Shown: positions 6,502-60,875 of the stretch, piece after piece
How the letters are laid out: each line of letters begins with the position of its first letter
Position numbering within the stretch: the stretch's first letter is position 1
NCBI GenBank assembly: GCA_018817585.1
Contig: JAHITE010000080.1
Span: forward strand, 5,774-69,773
Direction of reading: 5' to 3'
Source of the DNA: Candidatus Omnitrophota bacterium
GTDB taxonomy: Bacteria > Omnitrophota > Gorgyraeia > B26-G9
DNA length: 64,000 bases
Translations under genes and position numbers: made by a program
Notes under the pieces: model-generated
The model's database searches: none
What the model saw: the letters and a program-made list of their open reading frames with translations, nothing else
What the model was told of the DNA's origin: nothing

Positions 6502-9500
6502 ATGAGGAAAATATTGTTTGCTTGTTTAGGATTAATGATCGGAGTGTTAAGCATTATACCGTGTGTTGGGGCAAAAGAAGTGGATATGTGTATTGCTTCT
6601 AAAACAATGTGTATGCCCAGCTATGTGGTACAGGAGGCTGCTTACATTGGTAAGGTAGAAGATGCTACTGTGTTTGTGGATACAAAATTAAAGATTGAAG
6701 TTTTAGCTGAGCAGCAGAGTAGCGTTCCTTTGTTTACTCAGGATGTGGCAATGATTAAAACCGCTTTACCTAAAGGCGTATTGCTGCTGCAGCGAGAAGG
6801 CAGGTATAATCTGCTTTTTCCGGGTAAAGGCAGTTATTCTGTTGGACTGCAATTCACCGCCTTGGTTAATCAGAAAAGTGATCGTAATATGCTGAATCTT
6901 GAGGTATTTCCGTCAGCGATTTCCACATTACAATTGGTGTTCGAGGGGATTGATCTGGATATTCAAAGCAGTCCGGCAATGAGCACGCAGATAAAAGCCA
7001 AAGGTAAAAACACGGAATTTACAGCTTATTTGGGAGCGGCTAAACAGATTGAAGTGAGTTGGTTTGCCAAGCCTACGGCTTTAGCCAAAGCAGATCTTTT
7101 GTTTAATTCAGAGAATAATACTCTGATTACTATATCCTCTGGCGTGATTAATACCCGGACTTTTTTAAATTACAAAGTTATTCAGGGGAAACTTTCTCAA
7201 TTTAATGTGTCTTTGCCGGAAAATATGAATCTGTTGACTGTTAAAGGCGAAAACCTGAAAAACTGGACATTAAAAAAAGAGAAGAATAAGCAGATTCTTA
7301 GCGTGGAATTAACAAAGGAAATCTCCGATACATATCAATTAGTGCTGGACGCGGAAGAAATAAAAGATAAGATTGAAGGTAATTATAGCACGTCGGATAT
7401 TATTTCTTTAGACTCTGAAAGGGAAAATGGCTATTACGCGTTTAAGGTAAAAGATGATTATAAACTGCGTTCTTTGCAGCGCGATGGAGTTAGTCAGCTG
7501 AATATCGCGGAATTACCGCAACAGCTAAAAGATGCCGGAGACGGCGAAGCAAATATTTCTTTAGCGTATCGTTTTTTACGTGATCCTAAAGAACTGATGA
7601 TTAATATTGAGAAAACAATGCCGGAAATATCCGCCCGGAATAATGTTTTTCTTGATGTGTCAGAAGAAGTAATGCGGCTGCTGATTATGACTGATTATAA
7701 GATTGAGAAAGCAGGGGTGTTTAATTTTAATCTGGAATTGCCCGGCGATATGGATGTTATTGATGTTAAAGGTTTAAATATTGAAAACTGGAAAGTAAAT
7801 CAAAAAGGGAATAGGCAGGATCTGGAAATCCAGCTGCGCACTAAGGCCATCGGGGATTATCGCTTATTAGTTAAGCTGGAAAAGCCGGTAAAAGATATTT
7901 ATCAGGATATTCAGATGCCGCAGGTAAATGTTTTAAATGTGGATAAGCTGACGGGTTTTATTGGTGTGGCTTGCGAGAGCAGTATTAATCTTAAAACAAA
8001 ACACCGCGGTAAGCTTACGGAAACAGCTTTATCAGATTTAATCGAGATTCCCGGGGAGAAAATCTATCCGAACTTAGCGTATAAGTTTATTACCCAGCCT
8101 TATGAACTGCAGCTGGCAGTAGAAAAGGTTGATCCGCGGGTAATGGCGGATGTCTTTACCTTTTTATCAGTGGGTGAAGGTTTGGTCCTGGTTAATTCAG
8201 CGGTAACATTTGATGTTTTATTTGCCGGAGTTGATCAGTTTGAAATTGTCTTACCTAATGATGTCAGCGGAGTGGATATCATGGGACAGGGAATTAAAGC
8301 CAAAGCAGAACGTTTAGAAGAAATGGATGTAAACGGTCAGAAGAAAAAAGTAAAAATATATACGATTTCTTTACATTCTAAAGTAAAGGGCAAGTATAAT
8401 CTTTACTGTGCCTATGAAAAAGTATTAAAAAATCTTTCGGAAAAAACAGAAATGCCGGCATTTCAGGTTCTTGGGGTCGAACGTCAGACCGGCAGTGTGG
8501 CCATTGGTCCAAGGGCAAATGTGGAAATTGAATTAGTTAATATTGACGGGGCCAGCCAGGTAGATGTTAAGGAATTACCGCAGGATAAACTTGCCGGCGC
8601 GGATATTCCGATATTATACGCTTTACAATATGTCCGCTATCCATATAGCGTGGGCTTAGACATTAAAAAGCACGAAGATGTCGCGGTATTGGTGGCGGTA
8701 GTTGAAGCAGCAAATATTACAACTGTTTTAGGTAAAGACGGGCAGATTATTGTCAGCGCGAAGTATCAGATTAAAAACAGAACAAAACAGTATTTAGACA
8801 TAGCTTTGCCTAAAAATGTGGAAATCTGGAGCACTTTTGTTGACGGCAAAGCGGTAAAACCCGCGAAAACCGAAGAAAATAAAATATTATTACCCTTGGT
8901 TAAGTATGAAGAAAAAGACCGCAGTTTTCCTGTGGAAATAATTTATGAAGTTAAGCGTTCTAAATTTTTCCTGTTTGGCAGGATAAATCTTACTGCGCCG
9001 CAGTTTGATATTCCGCTGACAAATGTTACCTGGGATGTGTATATGCCGTTTGGTTATAATTATTTTAATCTTAGCGGTAATCTGGAACCAGGTACAAGAG
9101 TTTTTGCTCAGGGCAGATGGAGGCAGCCGCAGGAACATATGGATAAAAGGATTATTGGCGGACTTAATGTTGAAAAGCTTGGGAGAGACATGCCCGCCAG
9201 GTCGCAAGAACTAATGGACTATGAGACCTGCGCGGATACATCGTTTTGTGATTTAAAAAAAGAAGCCTATACGCAGAAGCCCGCGCCAGAAATCTGGCAG
9301 AAAAAAGACCAGACATTTGTCTCAAATATAAATACTCAGACCGCGCGTTATAATCAGCAGTTAGCTCCGTCAAAAACCAAGCAAGTGGCAACCAAAGGCA
9401 GACAAAAAGGGGTATTACCGATTCATATTACCATTCCGACTGGAGGCAAACTCTATACATTTACCAAATTAATCAGCCGGGAGCAGCTAAAGATACATGC

Positions 9501-9633
9501 TTTTTATACTAAGAAATCAGGCAGACTATTGTTTTTGATTATTTTGTTCGCGGGCATCGCAATAATTATCCGCTATAAACAAAATGTAATAAAAACAATC
9601 CAAAATCTCAGCAGAAAAAACAAGCCGGAATAA
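6502..9633 (+). CDS. large secreted or surface protein with about three internal repeats of ~130 aa and a C-terminal TM anchor
   Basis: N-terminal signal peptide (MRKILFACLGLMIGVLSIIPCVGA). Repeated ...NLKNWTLKKEKNKQILSVELTK... / ...NIENWKVNQKGNRQDLEIQLRTK... / ...GQKKKVKIYTISLHSK... modules. C-terminal hydrophobic helix followed by a basic tail. Confidence 0.6.
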   Translation: MRKILFACLGLMIGVLSIIPCVGAKEVDMCIASKTMCMPSYVVQEAAYIGKVEDATVFVDTKLKIEVLAEQQSSVPLFTQDVAMIKTALPKGVLLLQREGRYNLLFPGKGSYSVGLQFTALVNQKSDRNMLNLEVFPSAISTLQLVFEGIDLDIQSSPAMSTQIKAKGKNTEFTAYLGAAKQIEVSWFAKPTALAKADLLFNSENNTLITISSGVINTRTFLNYKVIQGKLSQFNVSLPENMNLLTVKGENLKNWTLKKEKNKQILSVELTKEISDTYQLVLDAEEIKDKIEGNYSTSDIISLDSERENGYYAFKVKDDYKLRSLQRDGVSQLNIAELPQQLKDAGDGEANISLAYRFLRDPKELMINIEKTMPEISARNNVFLDVSEEVMRLLIMTDYKIEKAGVFNFNLELPGDMDVIDVKGLNIENWKVNQKGNRQDLEIQLRTKAIGDYRLLVKLEKPVKDIYQDIQMPQVNVLNVDKLTGFIGVACESSINLKTKHRGKLTETALSDLIEIPGEKIYPNLAYKFITQPYELQLAVEKVDPRVMADVFTFLSVGEGLVLVNSAVTFDVLFAGVDQFEIVLPNDVSGVDIMGQGIKAKAERLEEMDVNGQKKKVKIYTISLHSKVKGKYNLYCAYEKVLKNLSEKTEMPAFQVLGVERQTGSVAIGPRANVEIELVNIDGASQVDVKELPQDKLAGADIPILYALQYVRYPYSVGLDIKKHEDVAVLVAVVEAANITTVLGKDGQIIVSAKYQIKNRTKQYLDIALPKNVEIWSTFVDGKAVKPAKTEENKILLPLVKYEEKDRSFPVEIIYEVKRSKFFLFGRINLTAPQFDIPLTNVTWDVYMPFGYNYFNLSGNLEPGTRVFAQGRWRQPQEHMDKRIIGGLNVEKLGRDMPARSQELMDYETCADTSFCDLKKEAYTQKPAPEIWQKKDQTFVSNINTQTARYNQQLAPSKTKQVATKGRQKGVLPIHITIPTGGKLYTFTKLISREQLKIHAFYTKKSGRLLFLIILFAGIAIIIRYKQNVIKTIQNLSRKNKPE

Positions 9634-9701: not shown

Positions 9702-9940
9702 AATAGCTGAATATTTAGGAGATGATTTGAATATTTAGCATGTGGAAGCATGTGGATATAATAGATTTGGCTTGACATTTGCTATAAATCATTTGCTATA
9801 AATCTTCTTGCCCGGGGTGTTATAAAGAGTTATACTATTTACTAAAGAAAAACGCCACGGAAGGTGTCAGCGGAGTTTTTTTGCTTTAAAGCGGGGAATG
9901 TTTTTAGGAATTATTTTCTTTGCGCAAAATAATATATAAT

Positions 9941-11278
9941 ATGGCAAATAAAAAACAATCAAAACTCAAAATAAAAGTAAGGGCTATTCAGAAAAAAGCG
10001 AAAAAGCCTATATCTAAAAATAGCGCTTTTAAAGCGGAACGACGGAATTTTTCAAGACGGGCTTTTGACAAAATTAAAACTAATGCGAAAATGGGAAAGA
10101 CGGTTCTCCGGCAAGCGCGTGAGTTAAAGCTTAAAAACGGGCAGATAAAGAAATGGGTAGAGAGGAATGATCTGGCTGAGGAGCAGGTTTACATTCTTAC
10201 CAAGGCCATGGAATCAGCCGTGGACGGAATTTTTCTTATTGACGCGCGGAAACCGGATTATCCTATTGTTTATACTAATAAATCGTTTCAGAAGATGACT
10301 GGTTACACAAAAAATGAAATTTTGGAAAAAAATTATTTCTTATTCTACGGAGTTGAGGCCAATCCTCTTATTATCAAGAAAATAAAGCGCGCTATGCTTA
10401 AAGGGAAATCTTTTCACGGAGAAGTGCTTAATTTGAATAAGGCTGAAAAAAAATGCTGGAATTCATTGCGCCTTTCTCCGGTACCTGATTTAAAAGGGGA
10501 GGTTACTCATTATGTAGGGATCAAGACAGATCTCACCTTGATGAGGCAGAGAGAATTAAAGATCGAAGAGCAGCGCCATGAGCTTTTGCACGTAACCAGG
10601 GTGGGAAAACTCGCGGAATTTGTTTCTTCTTTAGCGCATGAGATCAGCCAGCCGCTTACGTCTATTCTTTCTTACGCGCAGGCGGCTCAACGTATGCTTA
10701 ATGGCAAAGAGCCTAAGCTAAAGGATATATTGCAGTACATTATTAATGATGACCAGCGGGCGGCCGCGGTTATTCAGCGCATGCGTTTGCTTTTAAAGAA
10801 GGGTATTTCGGAAATGAAACCGCTTGACATCAATACTCTTATTAATGATACAGTTATACTTATTGCTACTGATGCCGCAGTAAGGCACGATGTCTTAAAG
10901 CTCGAGCTTGAAAAGAACCTTCCGCTTATCCGCGGTGACCATATACAGCTGCAGCAGGTTATCCTGAATCTTATCAGTAATAGTTTCGATGCTCTGGATA
11001 ACGCGCCGCAGGTCCGGGAGATAATGATCAGTACATCGCGGAAGGATAATGTGATTATTGTTGAAATTCGGGATACAGGATGCGGGATACCAGTGAAGAA
11101 TCTTCCTAAGCTTTTCACCCGGTTTTTTACGAGTAAACAGGATGGGCTGGGCATGGGATTGTCTATCAGCCGCTCTATTGTTGAGTTTCATGGCGGGAAA
11201 TTGGATGTTAAAAATAATCCTAGCGGCGGGGCAATTTTTTATTTTTCCCTTCCTATCAAGAAAAAAGCCAGAGTATGA
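9941..11278 (+). CDS. PAS-domain sensor histidine kinase (HisKA + HATPase_c) with a Lys-rich N-terminus
   Basis: PAS segment (IDARKPDYPIVYTNKSFQKMTGY), H-box (SLAHEISQPLTS), N/G boxes (ISNSFDAL, GLGMGLSISRSIVEFHGGKL). The ORF track uses TTG at 9920. ATG at 9941 is preferred. Confidence 0.85.
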   Translation: MANKKQSKLKIKVRAIQKKAKKPISKNSAFKAERRNFSRRAFDKIKTNAKMGKTVLRQARELKLKNGQIKKWVERNDLAEEQVYILTKAMESAVDGIFLIDARKPDYPIVYTNKSFQKMTGYTKNEILEKNYFLFYGVEANPLIIKKIKRAMLKGKSFHGEVLNLNKAEKKCWNSLRLSPVPDLKGEVTHYVGIKTDLTLMRQRELKIEEQRHELLHVTRVGKLAEFVSSLAHEISQPLTSILSYAQAAQRMLNGKEPKLKDILQYIINDDQRAAAVIQRMRLLLKKGISEMKPLDINTLINDTVILIATDAAVRHDVLKLELEKNLPLIRGDHIQLQQVILNLISNSFDALDNAPQVREIMISTSRKDNVIIVEIRDTGCGIPVKNLPKLFTRFFTSKQDGLGMGLSISRSIVEFHGGKLDVKNNPSGGAIFYFSLPIKKKARV

Positions 11279-11287
11279 CTATTCTCA

Positions 11288-11429
11288 AGACGATAATTTA
11301 TGTTGCGGAGTCTCACTTCAAATAATTAAGGTCTACCGCGGCCGGGTAATGAATAAAATGCAGGCCAAAATCGTGTCCGAGCTTATCCGTTTTGCCCAAA
11401 AAGCAGGCATTACTCCCTCTAAAAGTTAA
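11288..11429 (+). pseudogene. remnant of a FixJ/NarL-type response regulator: only the last ~40 aa of the LuxR HTH
   Basis: ...VSLQIIKVYRGRVMNKMQAKIVSELIRFAQKAG closely matches the FixJ C-terminus (ISPRTVEVHRANVMAKMKAKSLPHLVRMA). No receiver domain lies upstream, because the region is occupied by the complete histidine kinase. Confidence 0.5.
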
Positions 11430-11503
11430 TTTCTTCAAAGATAATATTTATTCAAACCTCTTCAAAATCGCACAAAACATAATCTACCGCAAAATTCGGG
11501 ATG

Positions 11504-11547
11504 TATACCCAGGTACAATTGATTAAAATTTTTATTTCGCGCATAAT
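11504..11547 (+). promoter_or_regulatory. palindromic operator (tatacccaggtaca) abutting a sigma70-like promoter (-35 ttgatt, 17 bp spacer, -10 cataat)
   Basis: Copy 1 of a module repeated at 15563 and 18607 (see findings). Confidence 0.5.
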
Positions 11548-11820
11548 AATACTAGAGGTATTGTAAGTAAAAACTATGGACATTAAAAAATATCAAAATA
11601 AAAGGTTTTCGGCTGGGTGCTGTTTGGCAAGCGTTAATAATTGCCACAATATTAACAAGTTTATTTGCTTTTATAAGTTTTAAATGGTGGGTTTTTAGAA
11701 CCTTGCCCCATACGAATACGCGCCTAAGAGGAAAAAACCGCCGATTGATATTCAATTATCCGGGTTTATATACTTGAGAGTTCTTCCGGGAACTAATTCC
11801 ACTGAATTGAAAGCGGTAGA

Positions 11821-14800
11821 ATGACTATGAAGATTTTAATGATGACAAACACTTATACTCCCATGGTTGGAGGAATAGAACAATCTATTCATTCCTTTAC
11901 TCTTGAGTTTGAAAAATTGGGCCATGAAGTTGTTATTGTCGCGCCTGAATGCGCGGGCGCGCCGCCTGATGAGGTTGGGGTGATACGCCTGCGCGCGATT
12001 CAAAAATTCAACCATTCAAATTTTTCCATTGCTTTACCGATGTCGAGTCTTTTACCGGAACTTATGAAAAAGTTTATGCCGGATATTATTCATTGCCACC
12101 ACCCTTTCTGGATGGGGGATATTGCCCTGCGGTTAAGCAGCCAATCCCGTGTTCCGCTGGTGTTTACTTATCATACGATGTTTGAACAGCATATGCATTA
12201 TCTGCCGATTCCAAATGAAGGGATTAAGCATTTTATCATTGAACTTTTTGCCGGTTACGCTAATTTGGCGAATCAGGTGATTGTGCCCAGCGAAAGTGTC
12301 CGCGCTATACTTTTAAACCGCGGGGTCAAAACCCCGATAGAAGTGGTCCCGACCGGAGTGGACCTGCGAAAATTTTCTCAAGGAGATGGAAATATTATCC
12401 GTAAACGCTTGGGTATCCCTTTAAATGCCGTTGTGGCCGGGTGTGTCAGCAGGCTGGTTTTAGAAAAAAATTTAGAATTCTTGAGCCGCAGTGTTGCTGG
12501 TTACTTAAAGAAAGAAAGTAAAGCGCACTTTTTATTGGTTGGAGAAGGGCCGCTTAAGGATCTGATCAAGAAAATCTATAAGGAGGAAGGAGCAGAGAAA
12601 AGGCTGCATCTGACCGGAGTGCTTAAGGGACAGGACCTGGTTGATTGTTATCACGCGATGGATATTTTTACTTTCGCTTCTTTAAGTGAGACGCAGGGGA
12701 TTGTTTTGGTTGAAGCGATGGCTGCCGGAGTTCCGGTTGTGGCTGTTGATGCTCCCGGCATTCGTGAAGTTGTTAAAGATGGTTACAATGGCCGGTTGAT
12801 ATTCGGAGAAAACCAAGACAATTTTTCAAAAGCGGTAGCGTGGTGCCTTAACCAGCCTCCTGGTGAATTCAAGCGGATGAAGGAAAATGCCAAAGCGACA
12901 ACAAAAGAATTCACCGCGGATCTTTGCGCTAAAAAGATGCTTAAGGTTTATCAGGATGTTATGATCAAAGAATACGTTTCTTCGGACCTCAAAAATAGTG
13001 CCTGGGAATCTCTGTCCGGACGGCTAAAGAGTGAGTGGGGGATGTTTAAAAATATGATGCAGGCAGGAGGCGCGGCCATAACAGAAAAGGCAATTTTAAG
13101 GGAACCTATTATTAAGAAAAGAAAAAGAGGGTTAGCCAATCTGCCTAAACTGTTATCTTTGAGTGAATGGTCAGCAAAACTTATGAGGCTATCTTTTTCG
13201 GAAGAGTCAGAAACTCAGCCGGGGTTAGTTTTTATACAAATTGATGGCTTGTCACAAGCTCAGCTTAAAAAAGCAATTAAAAACAATCAAATGCCTTTTC
13301 TTCACGGCCTTATTAAAAAAAAATATTATAAAATTTATCCTCAATATTCCGGGTTACCTTCAAGTACTCCGTCAGTTCAGGGTGAATTATTTTATGGCAT
13401 TAAACACATTGTTCCGGCATTCTCATTTTTCGACAAAAAAGCTCATAAAGTATTTAAAATGTATGACAGTGATGCGGTAGTTGAAATTGAGAGAAGACTT
13501 TCGGAACAGGGAGTCGGCCTTTTAAAAGACGGCAGTTCATATTCTAATATATATTCCGGGGGAGCGCGGGAAACACATTTTTGTGCCGCATTTTTAGGCT
13601 GGAGCCGGATATGGAAGGATGTTAACCCGAATAGCTTTTTTATTTTAATAGTAACTCACTTCTACGTGTTTTTAAGGATGCTGGTTTTAATATCTTGGGA
13701 AATTATTTTAGGAATTTTTGATTTTGGCAGAGATATTTTTAAAAAAAATAATTTTATTGATGAATTAAAATTTATTTATCTGCGTTCACTTATTTGTATA
13801 CATCTTAGAGAATTGGTTTCTTTGGGTGCTAAAATTGATATCGCGCGCGGATTGCCGATTATTTATTTAAATTTTTTAGGTTATGATGAAAACGCGCATC
13901 ATAGCGGGCCTTCATCGCGAGTTGCGCATTGGGCTTTAAAAGGGATAGATCGAGCTATTGAAAAGATCTATTATAATGCTATGCATTCACCTTGCCGCAG
14001 CTATGATATCTGGATCTGTTCTGACCATGGACAGGAGGATTCCATTTCATACATTAGCAAATATGGCAGGACAGTTCAGGAAGCTGTCGCGGAAGTTTTT
14101 AGAGAATTTGATACAACGATTGAAGGTGTTACTTTTGATAAAAATGGAGAACAGCTGCAGCGCGCCCGTTTATTGGGGTTTTTTTATGTTGAAAAAAAAT
14201 TTAGTAACGCGAATTTTGTCCAGGATAATTCTTTGGATAATAAGCTTGTAGTTACAGCTATCGGCCCGACGGGAAATATTTATTTGCCAAGAGAAATGAA
14301 TAATGTTGATAAACATTATTTCGCGAAAGCATTGGTAGCGAAAGCTAAAATTCCTGTTGTTATGCTGCCAAAAGAGCAGGGGCAAGTCTGTGTCTGGACA
14401 GAAGAAGGCGAATTTAATTTACCTAAGGATGCTAAGAAAATTTTAGGAGATGATCACCCGTTCTTATCTCAGGCAACAGAAGACTTAATTAGTATTTGTC
14501 ATCATGCTAACACAGGAGATTTTACTTTTATGGGATTTAAACCTGGGGCAAAAGAATTGATTACTTTTCCGTTGGAAAAAGGTTCTCATGCTGGGCCTGC
14601 CCCAGAAGAAACGAATGCTTTTGCGTTACTTCCGGTTGATGTTATTCCTAGGCAGAGAAAGAGAACGTATTTAACCCCGACGGATTTGCATTTCGCGGCA
14701 CTGCGATTTCTAAAACGCCCGATGCCGCAAGCGGGCAAACAATACTTTGACAATTTGATCCGCGAAAAATTTGAGGCTGCTCCGAAAACAATTCGGGTCA

Positions 14801-15534
14801 TGACTTATAATGCGCACTCTTGTATTGGACTGGATGGTAAAATTTCACCGGAAAGGATTGCCCGCGTTATTGGGCGGCATGAGCCGGATATTGTGGCGCT
14901 TCAAGAACTGGATATGTGGCGTAAACGTACCGGTGAAGTGGACCAACCGCATCTGATCGCTAAAGAATTAGAGATGATATATCATTTTCACCCCTCTGTG
15001 GTTGTTGATGAGGAGCGCTACGGCAATGCTGTGTTAAGCCGCTATCCAATGGAGTTAATGCGTGCAGGGAGGCTGCCTGGTACTATCAAAATCTCCATGG
15101 CGGAACCTCGAGGAGTTATTTGGACAGTTATAAGCATTGCGGGGATAAGGATAAATTTTTTTAACACGCATCTTGGGCTTTTCCCTCGGGAAAGGATTCG
15201 TCAAGCAAAGGCTTTGCTTGGTTCGGAATGGATAGCGCATCCGGTTTGCCATGGCCCGGTTATTTTGTGCGGGGATTTTAACGCTTTGCCTAATTCGCGG
15301 TTATGCCGTACAGTAAAGGAGTTTTTTCGAGATGCTCAAGAAGAACTTGAACATCACAGCCCCAAAGCGACTTGGTCTAGTTATTACCCCGTCGGAAGGA
15401 TTGATCATGTTTTTATCAGCCCTGAAATCGAGGTGACTCGAGTGGAAGTCTCTAGGACAGACCTGGATAAAATCGCTTCAGATCACCTTCCGCTGATTGT
15501 TGACATAAAAATCAGGTTACCAAAGAACGAATAA
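11821..15534 (+). CDS. tri-domain enzyme: GT4 glycosyltransferase + alkaline-phosphatase-superfamily phosphodiesterase/phosphotransferase + EEP phosphodiesterase
   Basis: N-terminus: GT4 (GT-B) motifs (TNTYTPMVGGIEQ, ETQGIVLVEAMAAGVPVVAVD). Middle: AP-superfamily metal-site motifs (VFIQIDGLS...SSTPSVQGE...YDENAHHSGPSS) with an embedded hydrophobic segment. C-terminus: EEP fold (VMTYNAHS...VALQELD...GDFNALPNS...IDHVFIS). Confidence 0.8.
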   Translation: MTMKILMMTNTYTPMVGGIEQSIHSFTLEFEKLGHEVVIVAPECAGAPPDEVGVIRLRAIQKFNHSNFSIALPMSSLLPELMKKFMPDIIHCHHPFWMGDIALRLSSQSRVPLVFTYHTMFEQHMHYLPIPNEGIKHFIIELFAGYANLANQVIVPSESVRAILLNRGVKTPIEVVPTGVDLRKFSQGDGNIIRKRLGIPLNAVVAGCVSRLVLEKNLEFLSRSVAGYLKKESKAHFLLVGEGPLKDLIKKIYKEEGAEKRLHLTGVLKGQDLVDCYHAMDIFTFASLSETQGIVLVEAMAAGVPVVAVDAPGIREVVKDGYNGRLIFGENQDNFSKAVAWCLNQPPGEFKRMKENAKATTKEFTADLCAKKMLKVYQDVMIKEYVSSDLKNSAWESLSGRLKSEWGMFKNMMQAGGAAITEKAILREPIIKKRKRGLANLPKLLSLSEWSAKLMRLSFSEESETQPGLVFIQIDGLSQAQLKKAIKNNQMPFLHGLIKKKYYKIYPQYSGLPSSTPSVQGELFYGIKHIVPAFSFFDKKAHKVFKMYDSDAVVEIERRLSEQGVGLLKDGSSYSNIYSGGARETHFCAAFLGWSRIWKDVNPNSFFILIVTHFYVFLRMLVLISWEIILGIFDFGRDIFKKNNFIDELKFIYLRSLICIHLRELVSLGAKIDIARGLPIIYLNFLGYDENAHHSGPSSRVAHWALKGIDRAIEKIYYNAMHSPCRSYDIWICSDHGQEDSISYISKYGRTVQEAVAEVFREFDTTIEGVTFDKNGEQLQRARLLGFFYVEKKFSNANFVQDNSLDNKLVVTAIGPTGNIYLPREMNNVDKHYFAKALVAKAKIPVVMLPKEQGQVCVWTEEGEFNLPKDAKKILGDDHPFLSQATEDLISICHHANTGDFTFMGFKPGAKELITFPLEKGSHAGPAPEETNAFALLPVDVIPRQRKRTYLTPTDLHFAALRFLKRPMPQAGKQYFDNLIREKFEAAPKTIRVMTYNAHSCIGLDGKISPERIARVIGRHEPDIVALQELDMWRKRTGEVDQPHLIAKELEMIYHFHPSVVVDEERYGNAVLSRYPMELMRAGRLPGTIKISMAEPRGVIWTVISIAGIRINFFNTHLGLFPRERIRQAKALLGSEWIAHPVCHGPVILCGDFNALPNSRLCRTVKEFFRDAQEELEHHSPKATWSSYYPVGRIDHVFISPEIEVTRVEVSRTDLDKIASDHLPLIVDIKIRLPKNE

Positions 15535-15562
15535 GGCTATTGGCATGGAGAAATTATATATT

Positions 15563-15605
15563 ATACCCAGGTACAATTGATATGATCACGCGGTTTTATT
15601 AAAAT
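15563..15605 (+). promoter_or_regulatory. palindromic operator (tatacccaggtaca) + promoter (-35 ttgata, 17 bp, -10 taaaat), copy 2
   Basis: Same 20-mer as at 11504. Located 25-65 bp upstream of the DUF2934 gene. Confidence 0.5.
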
Positions 15606-15629
15606 AAAATTAGAAGTAAGAAGAGAGAG

Positions 15630-15860
15630 ATGGTGATTGTAAAAAAGGAAGGGACTAAAATGATCTTAAATAAAACACAAATTGGCAAAAGAAAAAGAAT
15701 CGAAAAAAAAGCATTTGAGTTATTTGAAAAAAGAGGATATTCGCAGGGAAACGATTTGGATGATTGGTTTAAGGCGGAACAGCTTGTGCAAATGGAAAAT
15801 GCGGAGAATATTAAATTAGTTTATGAGAAGGTAAAAAAAGTAAGGAAAGGCTTTGTGTGA
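15630..15860 (+). CDS. DUF2934 family small protein
   Basis: ...IEKKAFELFEKRGYSQGNDLDDWFKAEQ matches the DUF2934 signature (AYxLWExRG...G.DLEDWL.AE). The start could be the internal Met at 15660. Confidence 0.6.
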   Translation: MVIVKKEGTKMILNKTQIGKRKRIEKKAFELFEKRGYSQGNDLDDWFKAEQLVQMENAENIKLVYEKVKKVRKGFV

Positions 15861-16014
15861 TTTGTATAATCGCCGCACAAACAGAACATAAGATAAGAAA
15901 GCCAGTAACCTTGACTGTCAATGGCTACATGTGCGGTGTTAAAAGTTTTTAAAGAAGGGGTTTATGAGTTTTGCGCATGGTATAGAATTTTAAGTGAACG
16001 CTTGAATAAAAAAT

Positions 16015-16575
16015 ATGGGGAAGGATGGAGAACTAATGGCAAATCCTTTGTCTAATGAAAAAGAAATTTATGAATACATAAAAATCAAAGGGAGTGTTGT
16101 GCCCCAGCCGGCTTGGGATTTTATGTACCGTCGAGTCGGTGATAATGTAACCGCGATTATCCTCCTTTGCCGGCATTGGCTGGCAAAGAAAGAATTTATG
16201 CCGGTTCAGGAAGCAAAGAGAATTATAAACTGGATCAACGATATGAAAAACGTGGTCAGCTTGATAACCGCGCCCTCAAAAGAGAACTCGTTTTTCCCCC
16301 AATTTGATGATTTCATTCCGCTTGACCCAATTGCACAAGAACTGATTAATCCTTACGTTGGAAGTGATGTGGTTATTATGGAGTCAGCCATAGAGGCGGT
16401 AATGCTTGCCTCTGCTAATCCTGCTCCGGTTTCGCCGGAAATCACGCAAAAGGTTCTGAATCACGCTCAAGCGATGAAAGAGTTTATGGAAAAAATTAAA
16501 GATTTAACCCGTGGAAAGAATCCGAGGGAAAATACCGCAATCTATACGATTCGTTTAGTGACGGATTGTTTCTAA
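16015..16575 (+). CDS. hypothetical N-terminal domain ORF, probably the 5' part of the downstream PAS-GGDEF-HD-GYP gene separated by a frameshift
   Basis: No recognisable domain. Frame +2 relative to this ORF reads a PAS N-cap (EGKYRNLYDSFSDGLFLTDLKG) that continues into the next gene without an ATG. Confidence 0.45.
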   Translation: MGKDGELMANPLSNEKEIYEYIKIKGSVVPQPAWDFMYRRVGDNVTAIILLCRHWLAKKEFMPVQEAKRIINWINDMKNVVSLITAPSKENSFFPQFDDFIPLDPIAQELINPYVGSDVVIMESAIEAVMLASANPAPVSPEITQKVLNHAQAMKEFMEKIKDLTRGKNPRENTAIYTIRLVTDCF

Positions 16576-18584
16576 CTGATTTGAAAGGTAGTTTTATCGA
16601 TATGAATCAGGCTTGTCTGGATATGTTTGGTTATACCAAGGAAGAAATCAAATTGCATAAGATTATTGATACGATTAGTGACGGTATAACTGTTTCCGAT
16701 ATGCAGGGCCAGTTTATGGTATTCAATGAGAAAATGCGGGAAATTAGCGGATATACTATAGACGAAGTAAACCGGCAAAAAGACTTTGATGTTCTTATTC
16801 ATCCTCAGAGTAAGGATCATCAAGAAGTGCTTAAAAGGCTAAACGAAATTTTTTCACAAGGCACAACGCGCGAAACTCAAACGACGATTCAGGCAAAGGA
16901 CGGTTCGGAAAAAACACTTTTGGTATCAACGGCTTTATTTAATTATAAAAATCGCGATATGTTTTTAAGTGTCTGGCGCGATATCACTGAGCGCAAGCGG
17001 TTAGAGAATGTGCTGAATGATTCGGAAATTCGCTTTCGCCGGCTTTTTGAAACAGCCCAAGACGGGATATTGATAATGGAGGAGGATACCGGCCAAATAA
17101 CTGAAGTTAATCCATTTTTGGTTGATATGCTGGGGTATTCCCGCGAGGAGCTCTTGGGGAAAAAACTATGGGAAGTAGGCGCTTTTGTGGATGTTGATAA
17201 AAGCAAAACAGCATTTATTCATTTACAAAGCAAGGGATATATCCGTTATGAAAATTTACCGCTTCAGGCCAAAGACGGCCATTTGGTTAGTGTAGAGTTT
17301 ATCAGTAACAGCTATAGAGTTGGGCGCAAGAAAGTTATTCAATGTAATATTCGCAATATAACCGAGCGCAGACGTTTGGAGATAGCGCGAGAGTATTTGC
17401 ATAATGAAATAGAAAAATCAAACCAGAAATTGGAACAGTTAGCCCTAAAGGATTCACATACCGGCCTTTATAACCATCGCTATCTTAAAGAGGCGCTTGA
17501 AGTGAATCTTGCCCGGGCACAGAGACAGTTTGCCCCGGTTTCCGTAATAATGATGGATATGGATCATTTTAAGTCAATAAACGATGTATACGGACATGTG
17601 TTTGGCGATTTGATATTAACGCAGTTTGCCGCCCGGCTGACTAAAACTGTCCGCCCTTATGATGCGGTTATTCGTTATGGCGGCGAAGAATTTATTGTAG
17701 TATCTCCTGATCTGGATAGAGCGGGCGCTTTAGTCTTAGCTCAAAGAATCCTAAAAACGGTCAGCTTATTTCCTTTTGGCGATAGTACCCATTCAATCAA
17801 GCTAACGTTAAGCTTAGCGGTTGTTTCTTATCCGGAAGATGTTATAGATATAAACACGGATTTAGTAGATCCTGTCGACCGGATCTTGAATAAGGCCAAA
17901 GAAGACGGCGGTAACAGGGTATATTCATCTTTGGACACAAAAAATGGGTCTGTTACAGCCCGGGAAACCGCGACAATACAGTTAATTAAGAAAAAAATAG
18001 AGAAACTTGCTGTCCGGGCAAACCATAGTTTAATTGAAGAGGCTTTGGCATTTGCCAGGAAAATAAAATTAAAGGACAACTATAACGGCGAGCAGGTGGA
18101 ACGAACCGCTGGTTGGGCAGTTAAAATTTCTCGGGCATTGCATTTTTCTAAAGATAAAATAGAGCTTATTCGGCAAGCGGCAATGCTGCATGATTTGGGA
18201 AAAGCCGGGATTAATGAGCATATATTGCGTAAAAATTCCAAGCTGGACACAGAAGAATTCGAAGAAATTAAAAAACACCCTCAAATAGGTGTGGACATTA
18301 TAAGTCCGATTCATTCTTTGTATCCGATAAAACCATTTCTTCTTTATCATCATGAACGATGGGACGGGAAAGGGTATCCCAAAGGATTGGCTGGGGAGAG
18401 TATCCCTTTAGGGGCCAGGATCATTGCCATCGCGGATGTATATCAAGCATTGGTTTCCAATCGTCCTTACCGCAAGGCTTATTCCAAAGAAAATGCTGTA
18501 AAAATAATAAGAAAAGCCGCAGGTACTCAATTTGATCCGGATATTGTAAAGGCATGTTTAATGGTTTTAAAGAACGAGTTATAA
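16566..18584 (+). CDS. PAS-PAS-PAS-GGDEF-HD-GYP c-di-GMP turnover protein (coordinates as given by the ORF track; the true 5' end probably lies upstream)
   Basis: GGDEF (RYGGEEF), HD-GYP (HDLGKAG, HHERWDGKGYP) and several PAS segments. TTG start at 16566. The in-frame upstream sequence back to 16500 still encodes a PAS N-cap. Confidence 0.85.
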   Translation: MFLTDLKGSFIDMNQACLDMFGYTKEEIKLHKIIDTISDGITVSDMQGQFMVFNEKMREISGYTIDEVNRQKDFDVLIHPQSKDHQEVLKRLNEIFSQGTTRETQTTIQAKDGSEKTLLVSTALFNYKNRDMFLSVWRDITERKRLENVLNDSEIRFRRLFETAQDGILIMEEDTGQITEVNPFLVDMLGYSREELLGKKLWEVGAFVDVDKSKTAFIHLQSKGYIRYENLPLQAKDGHLVSVEFISNSYRVGRKKVIQCNIRNITERRRLEIAREYLHNEIEKSNQKLEQLALKDSHTGLYNHRYLKEALEVNLARAQRQFAPVSVIMMDMDHFKSINDVYGHVFGDLILTQFAARLTKTVRPYDAVIRYGGEEFIVVSPDLDRAGALVLAQRILKTVSLFPFGDSTHSIKLTLSLAVVSYPEDVIDINTDLVDPVDRILNKAKEDGGNRVYSSLDTKNGSVTARETATIQLIKKKIEKLAVRANHSLIEEALAFARKIKLKDNYNGEQVERTAGWAVKISRALHFSKDKIELIRQAAMLHDLGKAGINEHILRKNSKLDTEEFEEIKKHPQIGVDIISPIHSLYPIKPFLLYHHERWDGKGYPKGLAGESIPLGARIIAIADVYQALVSNRPYRKAYSKENAVKIIRKAAGTQFDPDIVKACLMVLKNEL

Positions 18585-18606
18585 ATTTACGACGCTGTTG
18601 TTCTAT

Positions 18607-18650
18607 TATACCTAGGTATAATTGATTTAATTTTTTGTCGCGCCTATAAT
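18607..18650 (+). promoter_or_regulatory. perfect 14-bp palindrome (tatacctaggtata) + promoter (-35 ttgatt, 17 bp, -10 tataat), copy 3
   Basis: Same module as copies 1 and 2. Here the palindrome is perfect and the -10 is consensus. Confidence 0.55.
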
Positions 18651-18685: not shown

Positions 18686-18988
18686 ATGTCAAGAAAAGTA
18701 AAAAAATCTTTATTCTCGATGATGATGAATCAGTGCGCAGATCGCTGAGCATGCTTTTGGTTACGTATGGATTTGCAGTTAATGCTTTTTCCTGCGCAAA
18801 TGATTTTTTGTGCCTGACAGCGTTCCCGGGTGTTTGATCCTGGATATTCATATGCCGGGAATGGACGGCTGGGAGGTTTTAAGGCGGATAGTTAAATCAG
18901 GGGATAGACGGCCGGCCGGTGAAAACACGGAGTGGGTGTTAAAAACAGGAGCTGTAGTGGTTGAGCTTGATAAGGAAGGGAGAAAATG
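18686..18988 (+). pseudogene. FixJ-type receiver (REC) domain gene interrupted by two 1-nt frameshifts at homopolymers
   Basis: Restoring 1 nt in the A7 run (18700-18706) and in ccggg (18826-18830) gives MSRKVKKIFILDDDESVRRSLSMLLVTYGFAVNAFSCANDFL...PGCLILDIHMPGMDGWEVLRRI, a typical receiver. The stop overlaps the start of the next kinase gene (ATGA). Confidence 0.6.
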
Positions 18989-20041
18989 AAAATAAAGGCT
19001 GTTAAGAAAAGATTATCAGTACAGGCAGTACAAAAGAACGTATTAGAAGTTTCCGAGGACCGCTACCGCAGGCTTTTTGAAACAGCGCAAGACGGGATAT
19101 TAATCCTTGCCGCGAATACAGGAAAGATCAAAGATGTAAACCCGTTTTTGCTAAATATGCTGGGGTATGCTAAAAAAGATATTTTAGAAAAAAAATTATG
19201 GCAGATCGGCGCTTTTAAGGATGCCAAGGCATCAAAAAAAGCCTTTTTAGAGTTGCAAACCAAAGAATACGTCCGGTATGAGGACCTGCCTTTGGAAACA
19301 AAAGACGGACACAAAATCGCGGTTGAATTCGTCAGCAATGTTTACTTAGTTGACCAGAAAAGGGTGATCCAGTGTAATATCCGTGATATTACAGTCCGGA
19401 AGGAAGCTGAAGAGAGCATTCAGCGTTCTTTAAAAGAAAAAGAAGCTCTTTTGAAGGAGCTTCATCACCGGGTTAAAAATAACCTGCAAATTATTTCAGG
19501 CCTGCTGCAGTTAAAGCTTTTTAACTCTAAAAATAAAGAAGTTATTGATGTTTTTAAACAAGTACAGGAACGTATCAGAGTCATGGCTCTTGTTCATCAG
19601 AAGCTTTGTGAATCAAAAGATTTTATGAGTATTGATATCTCTGAATATATCAATGAATTAGTTAATGAATTAATTTTAGCTTACGGTATTGACCGGAAAA
19701 AAATTATGGTTAATGTTAATGTGGTCAAGGTGTTGTTAAAAATAGATATTGCGGTCCCTTGCGGGCTGATCATTAATGAACTGCTTACCAATTCTTTTAA
19801 ATATGCTTTTCCGGAAGACAGGAAAGGAGAAATCGCTATATCGCTGAGTTCAAACCGTAAAGGTATGTTAGAAATACTGGTCAGTGACAATGGTATTGGA
19901 TTTTCCAAAGGGTTTAATATTTATAAGGTTAAAACCATGGGGTTAAGAATTGTTATCGATACTATACAAACTCAACTGGGCGGGAAAATTAGCTTTAGCA
20001 GTGCTGGAGGAACATGGTTTAAGCTCACCTTTCAAAGTTAA
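18986..20041 (+). CDS. PAS sensor histidine kinase of the HWE/HisKA_2 type
   Basis: The PAS segment resembles that of the GGDEF protein. HisKA_2 signature (HHRVKNNLQII) and an HATPase C-terminus (DNGIGF). Confidence 0.85.
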   Translation: MKIKAVKKRLSVQAVQKNVLEVSEDRYRRLFETAQDGILILAANTGKIKDVNPFLLNMLGYAKKDILEKKLWQIGAFKDAKASKKAFLELQTKEYVRYEDLPLETKDGHKIAVEFVSNVYLVDQKRVIQCNIRDITVRKEAEESIQRSLKEKEALLKELHHRVKNNLQIISGLLQLKLFNSKNKEVIDVFKQVQERIRVMALVHQKLCESKDFMSIDISEYINELVNELILAYGIDRKKIMVNVNVVKVLLKIDIAVPCGLIINELLTNSFKYAFPEDRKGEIAISLSSNRKGMLEILVSDNGIGFSKGFNIYKVKTMGLRIVIDTIQTQLGGKISFSSAGGTWFKLTFQS

Positions 20042-20052: not shown

Positions 20053-20457
20053 ATGAGGGTTGTTGTGGAAAAAAATATTTTAATTGTTGAAGATGAGGCA
20101 ATAATAGCATCCAGTTTAAAGCTGTGTTTAAACAATCTTGGCTACAATGTGTTTAAAGTCGTCTCTAATGGAGAAGATGCCATAGAGAGTTCGGAGAAAA
20201 ATAATCCGGATGTAATCCTTATGGATATTAGATTGCGCGGGCAAAAGAACGGATATGAAACTGTAATCGCGATCCGGAAAAGCTCCAATACTCCGGTGAT
20301 CTATTTGACAGGAGGAGACCCGGATCAAATAGACGAAAAAGCAAAAGATACTAAGCCGTATGATTATATTATCAAGCCGTTTGATATAGCTGTGTTAACG
20401 GAGAAAATAGAAAAAATTACCGATAAAAAAAATAAAAAACAAACGAAGAAAAAATAA
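20053..20457 (+). CDS. single-domain response regulator (CheY-like receiver) with a Lys-rich tail
   Basis: ILIVEDEAIIASS...DVILMDIRL...KP receiver motifs. Lies 12 bp after the kinase gene. Confidence 0.85.
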   Translation: MRVVVEKNILIVEDEAIIASSLKLCLNNLGYNVFKVVSNGEDAIESSEKNNPDVILMDIRLRGQKNGYETVIAIRKSSNTPVIYLTGGDPDQIDEKAKDTKPYDYIIKPFDIAVLTEKIEKITDKKNKKQTKKK

Positions 20458-20657
20458 AGGAAGTTAATTATAGAAAGGAGAAAACAAACAATGGGTGTAA
20501 TGCTATGAGATGTGGGTGAGGCTGCCTTTCATTAGCGTGGTGATCTTAGTCGGGTTGGGGTGCTTTGTAGAGAAGCGGAATGTTTAGGGAATAAAAGGTA
20601 AAAACGCGGGGAGAGAGTTTCTTCCATACAGATTTACAAAAAAGGAAGGTGTGTGTT

Positions 20658-21437
20658 ATGAGTAAAAATTATTTTAAAATGTTTTTTTCAATGACCGTTG
20701 CTGTTTTGTTGTTTTCGAGCGTATTGGCGTATGCCTCTGAAATGGATGCCCGGATTGAATCATCCGCGAAGCAGTCCTACGTGTTCAAAACGTATCTCAA
20801 AAACGACTCTATTAAAATCCAGTCTATGGATGGCGCTGTCACCTTGACAGGAACGGTTGCCGAGGAATCGCATATATTATTAGCTGGAGAGACTTTGGCG
20901 AGCCTGCCAGGGGTCAAAAAAGTGGATAATAATCTGGTATTCGATGGTAAGTCTCAGGAAAAAAATTCTGACGGTTGGATCAGCCTGCAGATCAAAAGTT
21001 CTCTGCTTTTTAACCGTAATGTAAGCGGGATCAATACTCAGGTTTTCGTAAAGGACGGAATCGTAACCTTAAAAGGCGAAGCCGCTAATCAGGCGCAAAA
21101 AGATCTGGCCGGCGCGTATTCCAGAGACGTTAGCGGGGTTAAAGATGTAAAAAATGAAATAACAATAGCTAAAATACCAGCCGAACCAAAACAGACAATG
21201 GGTGAGAAAATAGATGACGCGTCGATTACCGCGCAAGTCAAGGTAGCTTTCTTGTCGCATCATTCAACCAGTGCTTTCAAAACCGGAGTTCAGACAAATA
21301 ACGGAGTAGTAACTTTAACCGGCAATGCCGTCAACTCAGCGTCAAAAGACATGGCCGGCAAGGTAGCTAATGATGTAAATGGCGTTACACAGGTAATTAA
21401 TAATATGACTGTAGATCAAATAATATCAAAGAACTAA
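20658..21437 (+). CDS. periplasmic BON-domain protein (OsmY-like, three BON repeats)
   Basis: Signal peptide plus repeated ...DG.VTLTG.V......AG..A..V.GV..V.N.. BON units. Confidence 0.75.
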   Translation: MSKNYFKMFFSMTVAVLLFSSVLAYASEMDARIESSAKQSYVFKTYLKNDSIKIQSMDGAVTLTGTVAEESHILLAGETLASLPGVKKVDNNLVFDGKSQEKNSDGWISLQIKSSLLFNRNVSGINTQVFVKDGIVTLKGEAANQAQKDLAGAYSRDVSGVKDVKNEITIAKIPAEPKQTMGEKIDDASITAQVKVAFLSHHSTSAFKTGVQTNNGVVTLTGNAVNSASKDMAGKVANDVNGVTQVINNMTVDQIISKN

Positions 21438-21526
21438 ATGCGTGTGTGTTGCTTGCGGTGTTTGCTGTAGGATGCCGCCAGTAGCGGTTTTTAATATTTA
21501 TAATTAACGAAGAAAAGGAGATTATT

Positions 21527-21694
21527 ATGTTGAATTATTCAGTTACGTTTTTTGTTATTGCCATTATCGCGGCGTTGTTAGGTTTTACCGGGATCGCGGG
21601 GGCGGCTATGGATATTGCTAAGATTTTGTTTTTTGTATTCTTGATTTTAGCAATTGTTATGTTAGTTTTGGGAAGAAAAGGAACGTCTGTATGA
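21527..21694 (+). CDS. UPF0391/DUF1328 small membrane protein (not in the ORF track, 55 aa)
   Basis: [51 protein letters not shown] matches the YtjA/DUF1328 pattern. An RBS aaaaggag lies 6 nt upstream. Confidence 0.6.
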
Positions 21695-21717
21695 ATGCGA
21701 AAAATGAGAGGTTGAAA

Positions 21718-22596
21718 ATGAAATACAATTATTTGATTATTTTAACAATCGCGGTGTTTGCTCTGGTTTTTTTCAGCCCCACCGCGGGGTTTGCTTTTTT
21801 TCTAGAATCAACGGATAGTTTTGCTGTTTTGGGGCATGAAACGGTGACCAACGGCCACAGCGACCCAAACCTGACAACTCAAATCTACGGGAATTTGGGA
21901 GTGGCGCCAGGAACTTCGGTCACGGGATTTTATCCTGACGGGGCCGTAAGCGGAGGAACGATACACATAAATGATGGTGTCGCGCAGCTTGCTTTGGCAG
22001 ACGCAGCGAACGTGTATAATACGCTGGCAGGTTTGCCATTTGTTTACGACTATACTGGTTTTGTCTTGGGTTCAGCGGGATACACTACTCTTACTCCAGG
22101 TGTCTATCATTTTGACACATCGGCTCAATTGACAGGAGCACTTACTCTTGATTTTCAAAATAACCCCGATGCGGACTTTATTTTCCAGATAGGGAGTTCG
22201 CTCACGACCGCAAGCAATTCTTCAATTAATGTAATCAATGGGAATTCCCTTAGCGGTGTGTATTGGCAGGTCGGAAGTTCCGCGACCCTAGGCACAGACA
22301 CGATTTTCGCCGGAAATATTCTTGCGCTTGCGAGTGTTAGCCTTGATCCTCGCGCAGAGATTCTTTGCGGGAGGGCTTTCGCGCTAACTGGGGCAGTGAC
22401 GTTGGTAGATAATTTTATTTCTAACAATAACACAGCCGAAGACTTCGGCAGCGGCCGCTCAGACTTTGGCAGTTACGGCTTTAGCGGCGGTAACGGTAGC
22501 AACGGCGGCAGTACAACACCGGTTCCGGAACCGGCAACAATGTTGTTGCTCGGGCCGGCATTAATCGGGTTGGTTGGAAAAAGGATGATAAATTAA
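21718..22596 (+). CDS. DUF3494 (ice-binding-like) secreted protein with a PEP-CTERM sorting signal
   Basis: Signal peptide, Thr/Gly/Ser-rich beta-solenoid-like body and a C-terminal VPEPATMLLLGPALIGLVGKR (PEP + TM + basic), the exosortase recognition motif. An RBS gagagg lies upstream of the ATG at 21718. Confidence 0.7.
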   Translation: MKYNYLIILTIAVFALVFFSPTAGFAFFLESTDSFAVLGHETVTNGHSDPNLTTQIYGNLGVAPGTSVTGFYPDGAVSGGTIHINDGVAQLALADAANVYNTLAGLPFVYDYTGFVLGSAGYTTLTPGVYHFDTSAQLTGALTLDFQNNPDADFIFQIGSSLTTASNSSINVINGNSLSGVYWQVGSSATLGTDTIFAGNILALASVSLDPRAEILCGRAFALTGAVTLVDNFISNNNTAEDFGSGRSDFGSYGFSGGNGSNGGSTTPVPEPATMLLLGPALIGLVGKRMIN

Positions 22597-22605
22597 GGAG
22601 GGATT

Positions 22606-23061
22606 ATGTTAAAAAAATTAGGAAAGGTTTTTTATGTTTTAACCTGTGCTGTTTTAATTCTTCAGCTAACTGGGTGCGGGACCATAATGTATCCTGACCG
22701 CAGAGGCCAAAAAGGCGGGAGGATTGATGTTGGGGTTGCTGTTTTAGATGGGGTTGGTTTATTTTTCTTTCTGATCCCCGGGATTATTGCTTATGCTGTT
22801 GACTTTTCTACAGGGGCGATTTACCTGCCAGGGGGACTAGCCCGGGGTCCTTTAGATATAAAACAGGTAAAATTTGATCCTAAAAATAGCAGTATGGCAG
22901 ACATTGAAGAAATTGTTAAAAAAGAAACAGGATGTGATGTAAGTTTGTACGGGAGCAAGATGCAGATTGTTAAAATGGAGTCTTCCGAGGAAATGATGAC
23001 GCGTTTTACCGAAGTTTCACCAGGGATAAACAATAATCGTGTTGTTTTAAGCATGAAATAA
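22606..23061 (+). CDS. lipoprotein, unknown function
   Basis: Lipobox-like LTGCGT after a signal helix, followed by an internal TM segment. Confidence 0.5.
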   Translation: MLKKLGKVFYVLTCAVLILQLTGCGTIMYPDRRGQKGGRIDVGVAVLDGVGLFFFLIPGIIAYAVDFSTGAIYLPGGLARGPLDIKQVKFDPKNSSMADIEEIVKKETGCDVSLYGSKMQIVKMESSEEMMTRFTEVSPGINNNRVVLSMK

Positions 23062-23091
23062 TCCTGTAATGTTAAAAGAAAGGAAGGCAAT

Positions 23092-23286: not shown

Positions 23287-23548
23287 GAATGTTGCGGCAT
23301 CAGATAGCCAATAAATTGTACTAAAGCAAATCCTGGATAAGGGAGGAGGAAGACATGGCAGATAAGAATAATTTATCTCGGTCAATATCTGAATTCTTGA
23401 AGCCATTTATCATCGCGGTTATAATTGTTATTATCGCGTGGATACTTGGCAAAGGTGTTTTAACCCTTATTTCTTCTCTAAAACAAATGTAATGGTTTTT
23501 TGTCTTTAAGGATAAATCCAGTAAAGAGATAAAAGAGAGATTAAAATT

Positions 23549-60868: not shown

Positions 60869-60875
60869 CGAGCTT

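Follow-up and report, generated by a model that had tools for sequence, protein, structure and literature searches.

The lux box, to which LuxR binds, is an inverted repeat of 20 bp with its centre at −42.5 (PMC3376562), and phosphorylated StyR dimers activate the promoter PstyA by way of an inverted repeat of high affinity that lies about 40 bp before the transcription start (PMC2442086). FixJ sites contain the sequence GTAMGTAG and form 18-bp imperfect palindromes (PMC4999443), and the FixLJ pair induces the receiver-only protein FixT, an inhibitor of FixL (PMC7078487). A palindrome in a comparable position is found three times in a 64,000-nucleotide stretch of DNA—hereafter the window—from a Candidatus Omnitrophota bacterium (assembly GCA_018817585.1, contig JAHITE010000080.1, positions 5,774 to 69,773 of the forward strand), where each copy of this 14-bp box is fused to the −35 element of a predicted promoter. 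The window belongs to a contig of 74 kb that MEGAHIT assembled from a metagenome in the European Nucleotide Archive. To our knowledge, hardly any Omnitrophota have been brought into culture, and their gene regulation is undescribed. Comparison with related genomes suggests, with a probability of roughly 70%, that each copy is a composite promoter whose box would be the operator of a dimeric FixJ/StyR-family response regulator acting as a class II activator.

The 20-mer TATACCYAGGTAYAATTGAT occurs exactly at 11504–11523, 15562–15581, and 18607–18626, each time on the plus strand, against a chance expectation of 0.02 in the window; copy 3 read in reverse constitutes a fourth match, and four matches were attained in 0 of 100 shuffles. 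All three copies are intergenic and are followed by 17 nt and a −10 hexamer, and the exact sequence TACCNNGGTA is confined to them in the 64 kb searched. Box 1 (11504–11517) has the palindrome TATACCCAGGTACA and is centred at about −43.5 from a predicted start near 11554; its core promoter (11519–11547), which consists of TTGATT as −35, 17 nt, and CATAAT as −10, matches the architecture of the 99 related sites described below. Box 2 (15562–15575) matches the same palindrome in sequence and leads into TTGATA-17-TAAAAT (15577–15605; predicted start near 15612). Box 3 (18607–18620) is a perfect 14-bp palindrome, TATACCTAGGTATA, with symmetry reaching TTCTAT|...|ATTGAT, and precedes TTGATT-17-TATAAT (18622–18650; predicted start near 18657). 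An earlier reading of this DNA from its letters alone (the sequence-only reading) had described the three 20-mers, the perfect symmetry of copy 3, the −35-17-(−10) arrangement, and a T-rich/CGCGC spacer common to copies 1 and 3; all of this stands, with the second copy shifted by 1 nt from the 15563–15582 given there. Likeness among the copies ends after about 50 bp, and a search for longer repeats, inverted ends, or target duplications flanking them found none beyond about 28 nt. No Rfam model matched the window at its gathering score. A generic promoter and terminator scan of 9.5–21.8 kb gave 34 hits versus 30.8 in shuffles, which is not above chance, so that the case for these promoters rests on comparison with other genomes.

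This comparison was carried out by scanning one genome per GTDB species with the 19-mer pattern TATACCYAGGTAYAATTGA, which leaves the −10 hexamer outside. The scan returned 97 stretches. Eight scattered singleton matches belong to unrelated taxa such as Mucilaginibacter, Pedobacter, and Lysinibacillus; the remaining 99 sites lie in about 60 metagenome-assembled genomes (MAGs, counted as accession prefixes), nearly all of them labelled Omnitrophota. A hexamer agreeing with TATAAT in at least five of six bases follows at a distance of 16–18 nt in 91 of the 99 sites; among random positions the share is 2.8%, and the eight matches in unrelated taxa include no such case. The hexamer is a perfect TATAAT at 49 sites, and the spacer measures 16 nt in 55 and 17 nt in 32. 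The intergenic enrichment expected by the sequence-only reading is pronounced, with only 5 of the 99 sites inside open frames of at least 150 codons, versus 73% of random positions. The sites always point to a downstream gene, whose start codon is 49–400 nt away, and hold orthologous positions across the MAGs, while a collection of viral sequences searched with the 19-mer contained no copy. By these sequence comparisons, the composite promoter module is kept phylum-wide, in about 60 Omnitrophota-type MAGs.

Beyond the 14-bp core palindrome, the dyad continues at positions that the search pattern left free: A15 and T16 have mirror partners in A at −2 (72%) and T at −1 (90%), as G18 has in C at −4 (48%), and the symmetry thereby extends to 18–22 bp. 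Further occurrences of the 14-mer, sought with at most one mismatch in 683 kb of loci, are all followed by ATTG on one strand, nearly always by ATTGA(T/C/A), and mostly by a recognizable −10-like hexamer; the two central bases and G9 vary among them. Because the 14-mer alone is always followed by ATTG, the fusion to the −35 element is not an artefact of the search. With the extra sites included, the consensus becomes T[A/G]TAC[C/T]-NN-[A/G]GTA[C/T]A. The extended operator reads AT-T[A/G]TAC[C/T]-NN-[A/G]GTA[C/T]A-AT, and its promoter-side edge runs into the −35 hexamer TTGAT/C, followed by 16–17 nt and a TATAAT-like −10. The phase between box and −35/−10 is constant at every site, including those not ascertained through the −35 element. 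If transcription starts 7 nt after the −10 hexamer, the dyad is centred at −42.5 where the spacer has 16 nt and at −43.5 where it has 17 nt, which is the case in the window. Bidirectional modules, with TCAAT directly 5′ of the box, were observed in loci L010, L028, L034, L061, L083, and L090. Here, a mirrored ATTGAC-17-TAAAAT/TAGAAT faces a divergent gene for a DAGK/YegS-type lipid kinase, and −35 and −10 elements mirrored on both sides are what would be expected of a symmetric dimer serving two promoters. The spacer carries its own conservation: whole-spacer classes are common to unrelated genes, and the conserved motif positions 22–37 correspond to 11525–11541 in the window. An A-rich element, GTAAAATCC, is located about 10 nt upstream of many boxes (positions −18 to −7; 11486–11497 in the window). 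The conserved spacers of the Omnitrophota promoters were also searched for a second regulator site, and none matched convincingly.

The candidate regulator emerges from the neighbourhood of the boxes. In at least 24 sites, the gene of a response regulator of about 208 aa ends 3–112 nt upstream of the box on the same strand; the protein consists of a receiver domain and a LuxR-type HTH (helix-turn-helix) domain with the near-invariant recognition region GTSLQTIKVHRGRVMQKMQAKTVTELI. It is preceded by a PAS-HisKA histidine kinase, present in 36 loci, which is orthologous to the FixL-like PAS-HisKA-HATPase kinase encoded at 9920–11278 (plus strand) in the window. In a clustering of all open reading frames of the motif-ascertained loci, the regulator/receiver family comes out on top (39 loci), the kinase is next (31 loci), and no further DNA-binding family was recurrent. 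The solved structures closest to the regulator are those of StyR (1yio, E = 3e-48) and FixJ (5xso, E = 7e-42). The reciprocal test, in which metagenomes of the Joint Genome Institute were searched with the regulator protein and the box was then sought downstream, returned 14 orthologues with at least 70% identity; the box follows the gene by 9–111 nt in 11 of the 13 for which downstream sequence was available. Distant homologues (45–51% identity, on contigs with 54–64% GC) have a box-like 14-mer 18–206 nt downstream in 11 of 53 cases, where an estimated 0.3 or so would be expected by chance; most of these boxes read TATACCAAGGTATA, and the next gene is mostly a receiver-only one. The genomic linkage between box and regulator gene is thus a two-way one, and its recurrence after distant homologues implies that the box travels with this regulator subfamily across phyla. 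The fusion of the box to TTGAY, by contrast with this wider occurrence, is typical of the Omnitrophota group. These comparisons support narrowing the generic transcription factor of the sequence-only reading to a FixJ/StyR-like regulator.

Among the GC-rich metagenome contigs, TATACCAAGGTATA stands directly after the regulator gene at L117:4690, L118:4615, L141:4655, L128:846, L140:2291, and L120:4719, and L117, L118, and L141 have a second, degenerate box 21 bp downstream. L121, L156, and L175 carry GTACAGTAGAAT direct repeats instead, which resemble the FixJ motif GTAMGTAG obtained by SELEX (systematic evolution of ligands by exponential enrichment). Covariation between recognition helix and box among the distant homologues is suggestive only. 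The PAS domain of the kinase (10170–10590) is LOV-like, matching the NCBIfam YtvA family with E = 3.6e-25, and reads EKNYFLFYG where LOV domains have GRNCRFLQG. All 18 orthologous PAS domains compared share the pattern G-x-x-Y/S-F/L-x-x-Y/H, and 17 of the 18 have a tyrosine at the position of the cysteine. The domain therefore looks like a conserved LOV-derived sensor devoid of the flavin-adduct cysteine.

The genes downstream of the box are diverse. The commonest first gene encodes a receiver-only protein (23 sites), followed by DUF5670, a peptide of the lmo0937 type, and a 133-aa lipoprotein (8 sites each), a 375-aa MlaE permease (7), a 151-aa secreted protein (6), DUF2934 (5 including the window, with a related 84-aa cluster at 3 more), an autotransporter (4), and Fe/Mn superoxide dismutase and entericidin (3 each). 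Further first genes encode patatin, HTH_17 with KaiC, DAGK/YegS, DUF3309, Transgly_assoc, and a low-affinity iron permease. The same islands repeatedly contain components of Mla-type ABC systems and a GtrA/glycosidase-like gene. By its likeness to the RpoS, SigB, and EcfG regulons, this inventory would suggest an envelope and general-stress regulon. The 133-aa lipoprotein gene has a conserved 5′ leader between −10 and start, CATAAGAYTGTTT..AATT....CTTA, seen at L010:1086–1153 (minus strand), L037:7588–7655, L045:5685–5752 (minus strand), L046, L054:2198–2265, and L070:2362–2429; TAAGA and TCTTA of this leader could pair just before the ribosome-binding site.

In the mechanism proposed here, the operator would be bound by a dimer of the FixJ/StyR-family regulator through its LuxR-type HTH domains, once the neighbouring PAS histidine kinase has phosphorylated the regulator. 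With its centre at about −42.5/−43.5, the dimer would sit beside region 4 of the RNA polymerase sigma factor and activate transcription in the manner of LuxR at the lux box and of phosphorylated StyR at its site STY2. The receiver-only protein, encoded right after the regulator gene, may then exert a FixT-like feedback on the kinase. Binding, activation, the dependence on phosphorylation, the feedback, and the role in stress are what we infer from the comparisons. The sequence-only reading had envisaged a dimeric factor binding at about −50 to −36 before three operons; the comparative evidence strongly supports a dyad-symmetric site for such a factor, placed at about −50 to −37, joined to a sigma-70-type promoter, and common to several operons. 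Its small regulon centred on c-di-GMP has to be given up, the module being found in about 60 Omnitrophota-type MAGs before envelope and general-stress-type genes.

In the window itself, much of the circuit has decayed: by comparison with relatives, three genes are pseudogenes, namely that of the regulator, the receiver-only one, and the one that comes first after copy 1. All of the features described here are on the plus strand unless stated otherwise. The regulator pseudogene follows the kinase gene at 11276–11429; aligned with the intact gene of the closest relative, L029:3810–4436 (85% nucleotide identity), it shows a clean internal deletion of 472 nt that breaks the frame and leaves the first 10 codons and the last 40 or so codons of the LuxR-type HTH domain. 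Promoter 1 is followed by remnants (11577–11815) of a GtrA-like/glycosidase-like gene that encodes about 750–890 aa in relatives. They comprise the N-terminal helix GAVWQALIIATILTSLFAFISFKWWVFR and the C-terminal end KKPPIDIQLSGF, which are about 2.3 kb apart in relatives, about 2.2 kb having been deleted here. What had been taken for a 273-nt leader consists of these two ends. The first intact gene after promoter 1 encodes a 1237-aa fusion of a GT4 glycosyltransferase, a type I phosphodiesterase, and an EEP domain (11821–15534), and the first gene after promoter 2 encodes a DUF2934 protein (15630–15860). The next two genes (16015–18584), for a 186-aa protein of unknown family and a PAS-PAS-GGDEF-HD-GYP protein, occur as a pair also in L028 and probably form one unit with the DUF2934 gene. 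The gene assignments of the sequence-only reading need two amendments: the remnants of a deleted gene come before the GT4 fusion, and the receiver gene after copy 3 is frameshifted. The latter, a receiver-only, FixT-like pseudogene (18686–18989), is disrupted by a short internal deletion and by two frameshifts, one in a run of A7 near 18700 and the other in a run of T6 near 18805. Independent assembly by Logan of another run (SRR35106290) gave a contig that matches over 8.7 kb with 100% identity, and the matching part includes the damaged gene behind copy 3.

Downstream of promoter 3 lie a PAS-HisKA_2 kinase (18986–20041), a receiver protein (20053–20457), and a BON-domain protein (20649–21437). 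The last of these opens a run of stress-type genes at 20649–25897, located after the promoter 3 unit and with no box of its own here, which also includes a mechanosensitive channel, an ice-binding-like protein with a PEP-CTERM tail (21691–22596), and a small gene assigned to DUF3185 solely in the precomputed Pfam annotation of an identical contig. In the flanking sequence, which covered 5.8 kb on the left (L181) and about 5 kb on the right (L182, a Logan contig from another run), neither a second intact regulator nor a further box was found, and an exact look-up of the kinase sequence returned this contig only. With the adjoining regulator dead, the three promoters would be either orphaned or served by an unseen second regulator copy; their intact boxes would indicate that the decay is recent or that a regulator copy resides elsewhere in the genome. 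Elsewhere in the window, a gene for an IS200-like Y1 transposase of 229 aa (5771–6460), unrelated to the motif, adjoins the genes of two large proteins of 1043 aa (6502–9633) and 731 aa (2899–5094, minus strand) that have no Pfam match. A second signalling cluster (59518–63000) comprises a 414-aa protein with a C-terminal LuxR-type HTH (about 60580–60711), a receiver protein (60876–61250), and a HAMP/PAS sensor (61645–62970). The AT-rich near-palindrome TATACTATAATATA at 61349 lacks the fusion to a −35 element and probably matches by chance.

The same position of the box could also serve repression, the regulator or another dimeric protein at −50 to −37 blocking RNA polymerase at a strong promoter until stress relieves the block. 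The −35 and −10 elements are close to consensus, with a perfect TATAAT in 49 of the 99 sites, the extended palindrome reaches into the beginning of the −35 hexamer, and unphosphorylated FixJ has been reported to repress nif promoters in Rhodopseudomonas palustris (PMC13327599); intact boxes beside a dead regulator would then amount to constitutive expression. We nevertheless regard repression as unlikely, since the distance between operator and promoter is fixed to the base pair at every site and mirrored at the bidirectional ones. Such phasing is required by stereospecific activation and unneeded by repressors. Moreover, the closest relatives that have been characterized act as activators from here: StyR does so at STY2 (PMC2442086) and LuxR at the lux box (PMC3376562). 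The 16-nt spacer of most sites is, besides, suboptimal. It is less probable still that some other transcription factor binds the box and the FixJ-like regulator gene merely adjoins a conserved target promoter. The linkage is indeed genomic only, and about one quarter to one third of the sites adjoin a regulator gene; however, no other DNA-binding family recurs in the motif-ascertained loci, the box is still found after the regulator gene where the homologues are distant, GC-rich, and set among different genes, and both the type and the position of the site fit dimers of LuxR-type HTH proteins (PMC3376562). Least of all would we expect a repeated or mobile sequence that spread without a dedicated regulator (such as a duplicated promoter cassette), or the promoter of an alternative sigma factor, to account for the module. 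An IS200/Y1-type transposase gene does occur at 5771–6460, and the whole module of about 50 bp, spacer included, is similar before unrelated genes, a conservation which agrees with the duplicated cassette considered earlier as far as it goes. Yet only three copies are present in the 74-kb contig, none of them near the transposase gene; copies always point to the downstream gene and occupy orthologous positions in about 60 MAGs, and neither flanking repeats nor target duplications nor a copy in the viral collection were found. The absence of viral matches, the constant orientation to genes, and the orthologous positions across species show that the cassette is not a mobile repeat. Repetitive extragenic palindromes with their associated transposases (REP/RAYT) and miniature inverted-repeat transposable elements (MITEs) were rejected on account of copy number, orientation, and distance from the Y1_Tnp gene. 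As to alternative sigma factors, both promoter elements belong to the housekeeping type, unlike those of extracytoplasmic function (ECF) sigma factors, and no sigma-like family was found among the recurrent neighbours, whose clusters were inspected by sequence and in part scanned with Pfam.

Activation by a FixJ/StyR-like dimer is therefore favoured over repression on account of the base-pair-exact phasing. Several observations nonetheless weigh against it. The regulator scores 202.5 against NF006900, the NCBIfam equivalog of FixJ, which is below the cut-off of 255; the protein is thus FixJ-like but not FixJ itself. In the window, all three boxes are intact though the adjoining regulator is a pseudogene. 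Elements as close to consensus as TTGAT/C and these −10 hexamers are unusual for strictly activator-dependent promoters and would also fit a repressor operator. The common form of the site is asymmetric, with GGTACA as proximal and TATACC as distal half. The model leaves unexplained the conserved ATTTT between −35 and −10 (motif positions 24–28; T25 90%, T26 80%), and on the present alignments neither this spacer conservation nor the upstream A-rich element seems explicable by a single dimer site. Finally, a few of the MAGs are labelled Elusimicrobia, Firestonebacteria, Planctomycetales, or Clostridia, these labels being the submitters' own.

A wider reading, which we hold only tentatively and think rather doubtful as a whole, is that Omnitrophota, and possibly other phyla including GC-rich soil bacteria, run their general and envelope stress response via this two-component circuit rather than via an alternative sigma factor. 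The circuit, which may be made up of four components—a PAS kinase derived from a LOV protein and devoid of the flavin-adduct motif, its regulator of the FixJ/StyR-like kind, the TRTACY-NN-RGTAYA box on the −35 element, and a FixT-like receiver-only feedback protein—would then be a previously undescribed, widely conserved, and fourth type of master stress control beside RpoS, SigB, and EcfG, and the window would show its dismantling in one lineage. The module supplies a sequence-defined regulon with a named candidate regulator and kinase and with predicted start sites, all of which are testable without cultivation. It also offers a stress or envelope annotation for dozens of small proteins, among them DUF2934, DUF5670, DUF3309, and unnamed lipoproteins, and the cassette of regulator, box, and receiver gene that recurs across phyla suggests a broader FixJ-like subfamily with a predictable operator.

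Literature searches for the motif strings returned an orphan Shewanella prediction only, and those on Omnitrophota regulation nothing relevant; no account of the motif or of its regulon was found in the literature searched. The prediction, motif 48 (TTtaTAcCTAGgTAtaAA) of a cis-regulatory map of Shewanella, comes from comparative genomics (PMC2532739). It is nearly the same palindrome as the box, was given without a factor or promoter context, and may mark a related regulator. The lux box, like the sites of TraR, is a class II inverted repeat for a LuxR-type HTH dimer at −42.5, as compared with a predicted −42.5/−43.5 in Omnitrophota. In contrast to LuxR, which is a receptor for acyl-homoserine lactones, the Omnitrophota regulator would be controlled by phosphorylation as a FixJ-type protein; its box differs from the lux box in sequence, and a good −35 hexamer is retained and fused to it. 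In the StyS/StyR system of Pseudomonas, StyR is the closest solved relative of the Omnitrophota regulator. It serves one catabolic operon with three sites and IHF, whereas the Omnitrophota box occurs once per promoter at many stress and envelope promoters. STY2, which we take to read ATAAACCATGGTTTAT, would share an ACC-NN-GGT core with the box. The FixL-FixJ-FixT system is matched in its components, a PAS kinase, a receiver-HTH regulator, and a single-domain receiver, the order in Omnitrophota being kinase, regulator, box, and receiver-only gene. However, the PAS domain of the Omnitrophota kinase, compared without a search for haem-type features, differs from that of FixL in being LOV-like, with NYF(L/S)(L/F)Y for NCRFLQ. 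The targets likewise differ from those of FixLJ in not being fixK or respiratory genes, and the feedback role of the receiver is one that we infer. The likeness to the RpoS, SigB, and PhyR-NepR-EcfG systems, the last of these with its HWE/HisKA_2 kinases, lies in families typical of stress regulons—entericidin, Transgly_assoc, DUF5670/lmo0937-type peptides, a BON/OsmY-like protein, and Fe/Mn superoxide dismutase—and in HisKA_2 kinases accompanied by single-domain receivers. Where those systems rely on RpoS, SigB, or EcfG, control in Omnitrophota would use an activator box on housekeeping-type promoters and no alternative sigma factor.

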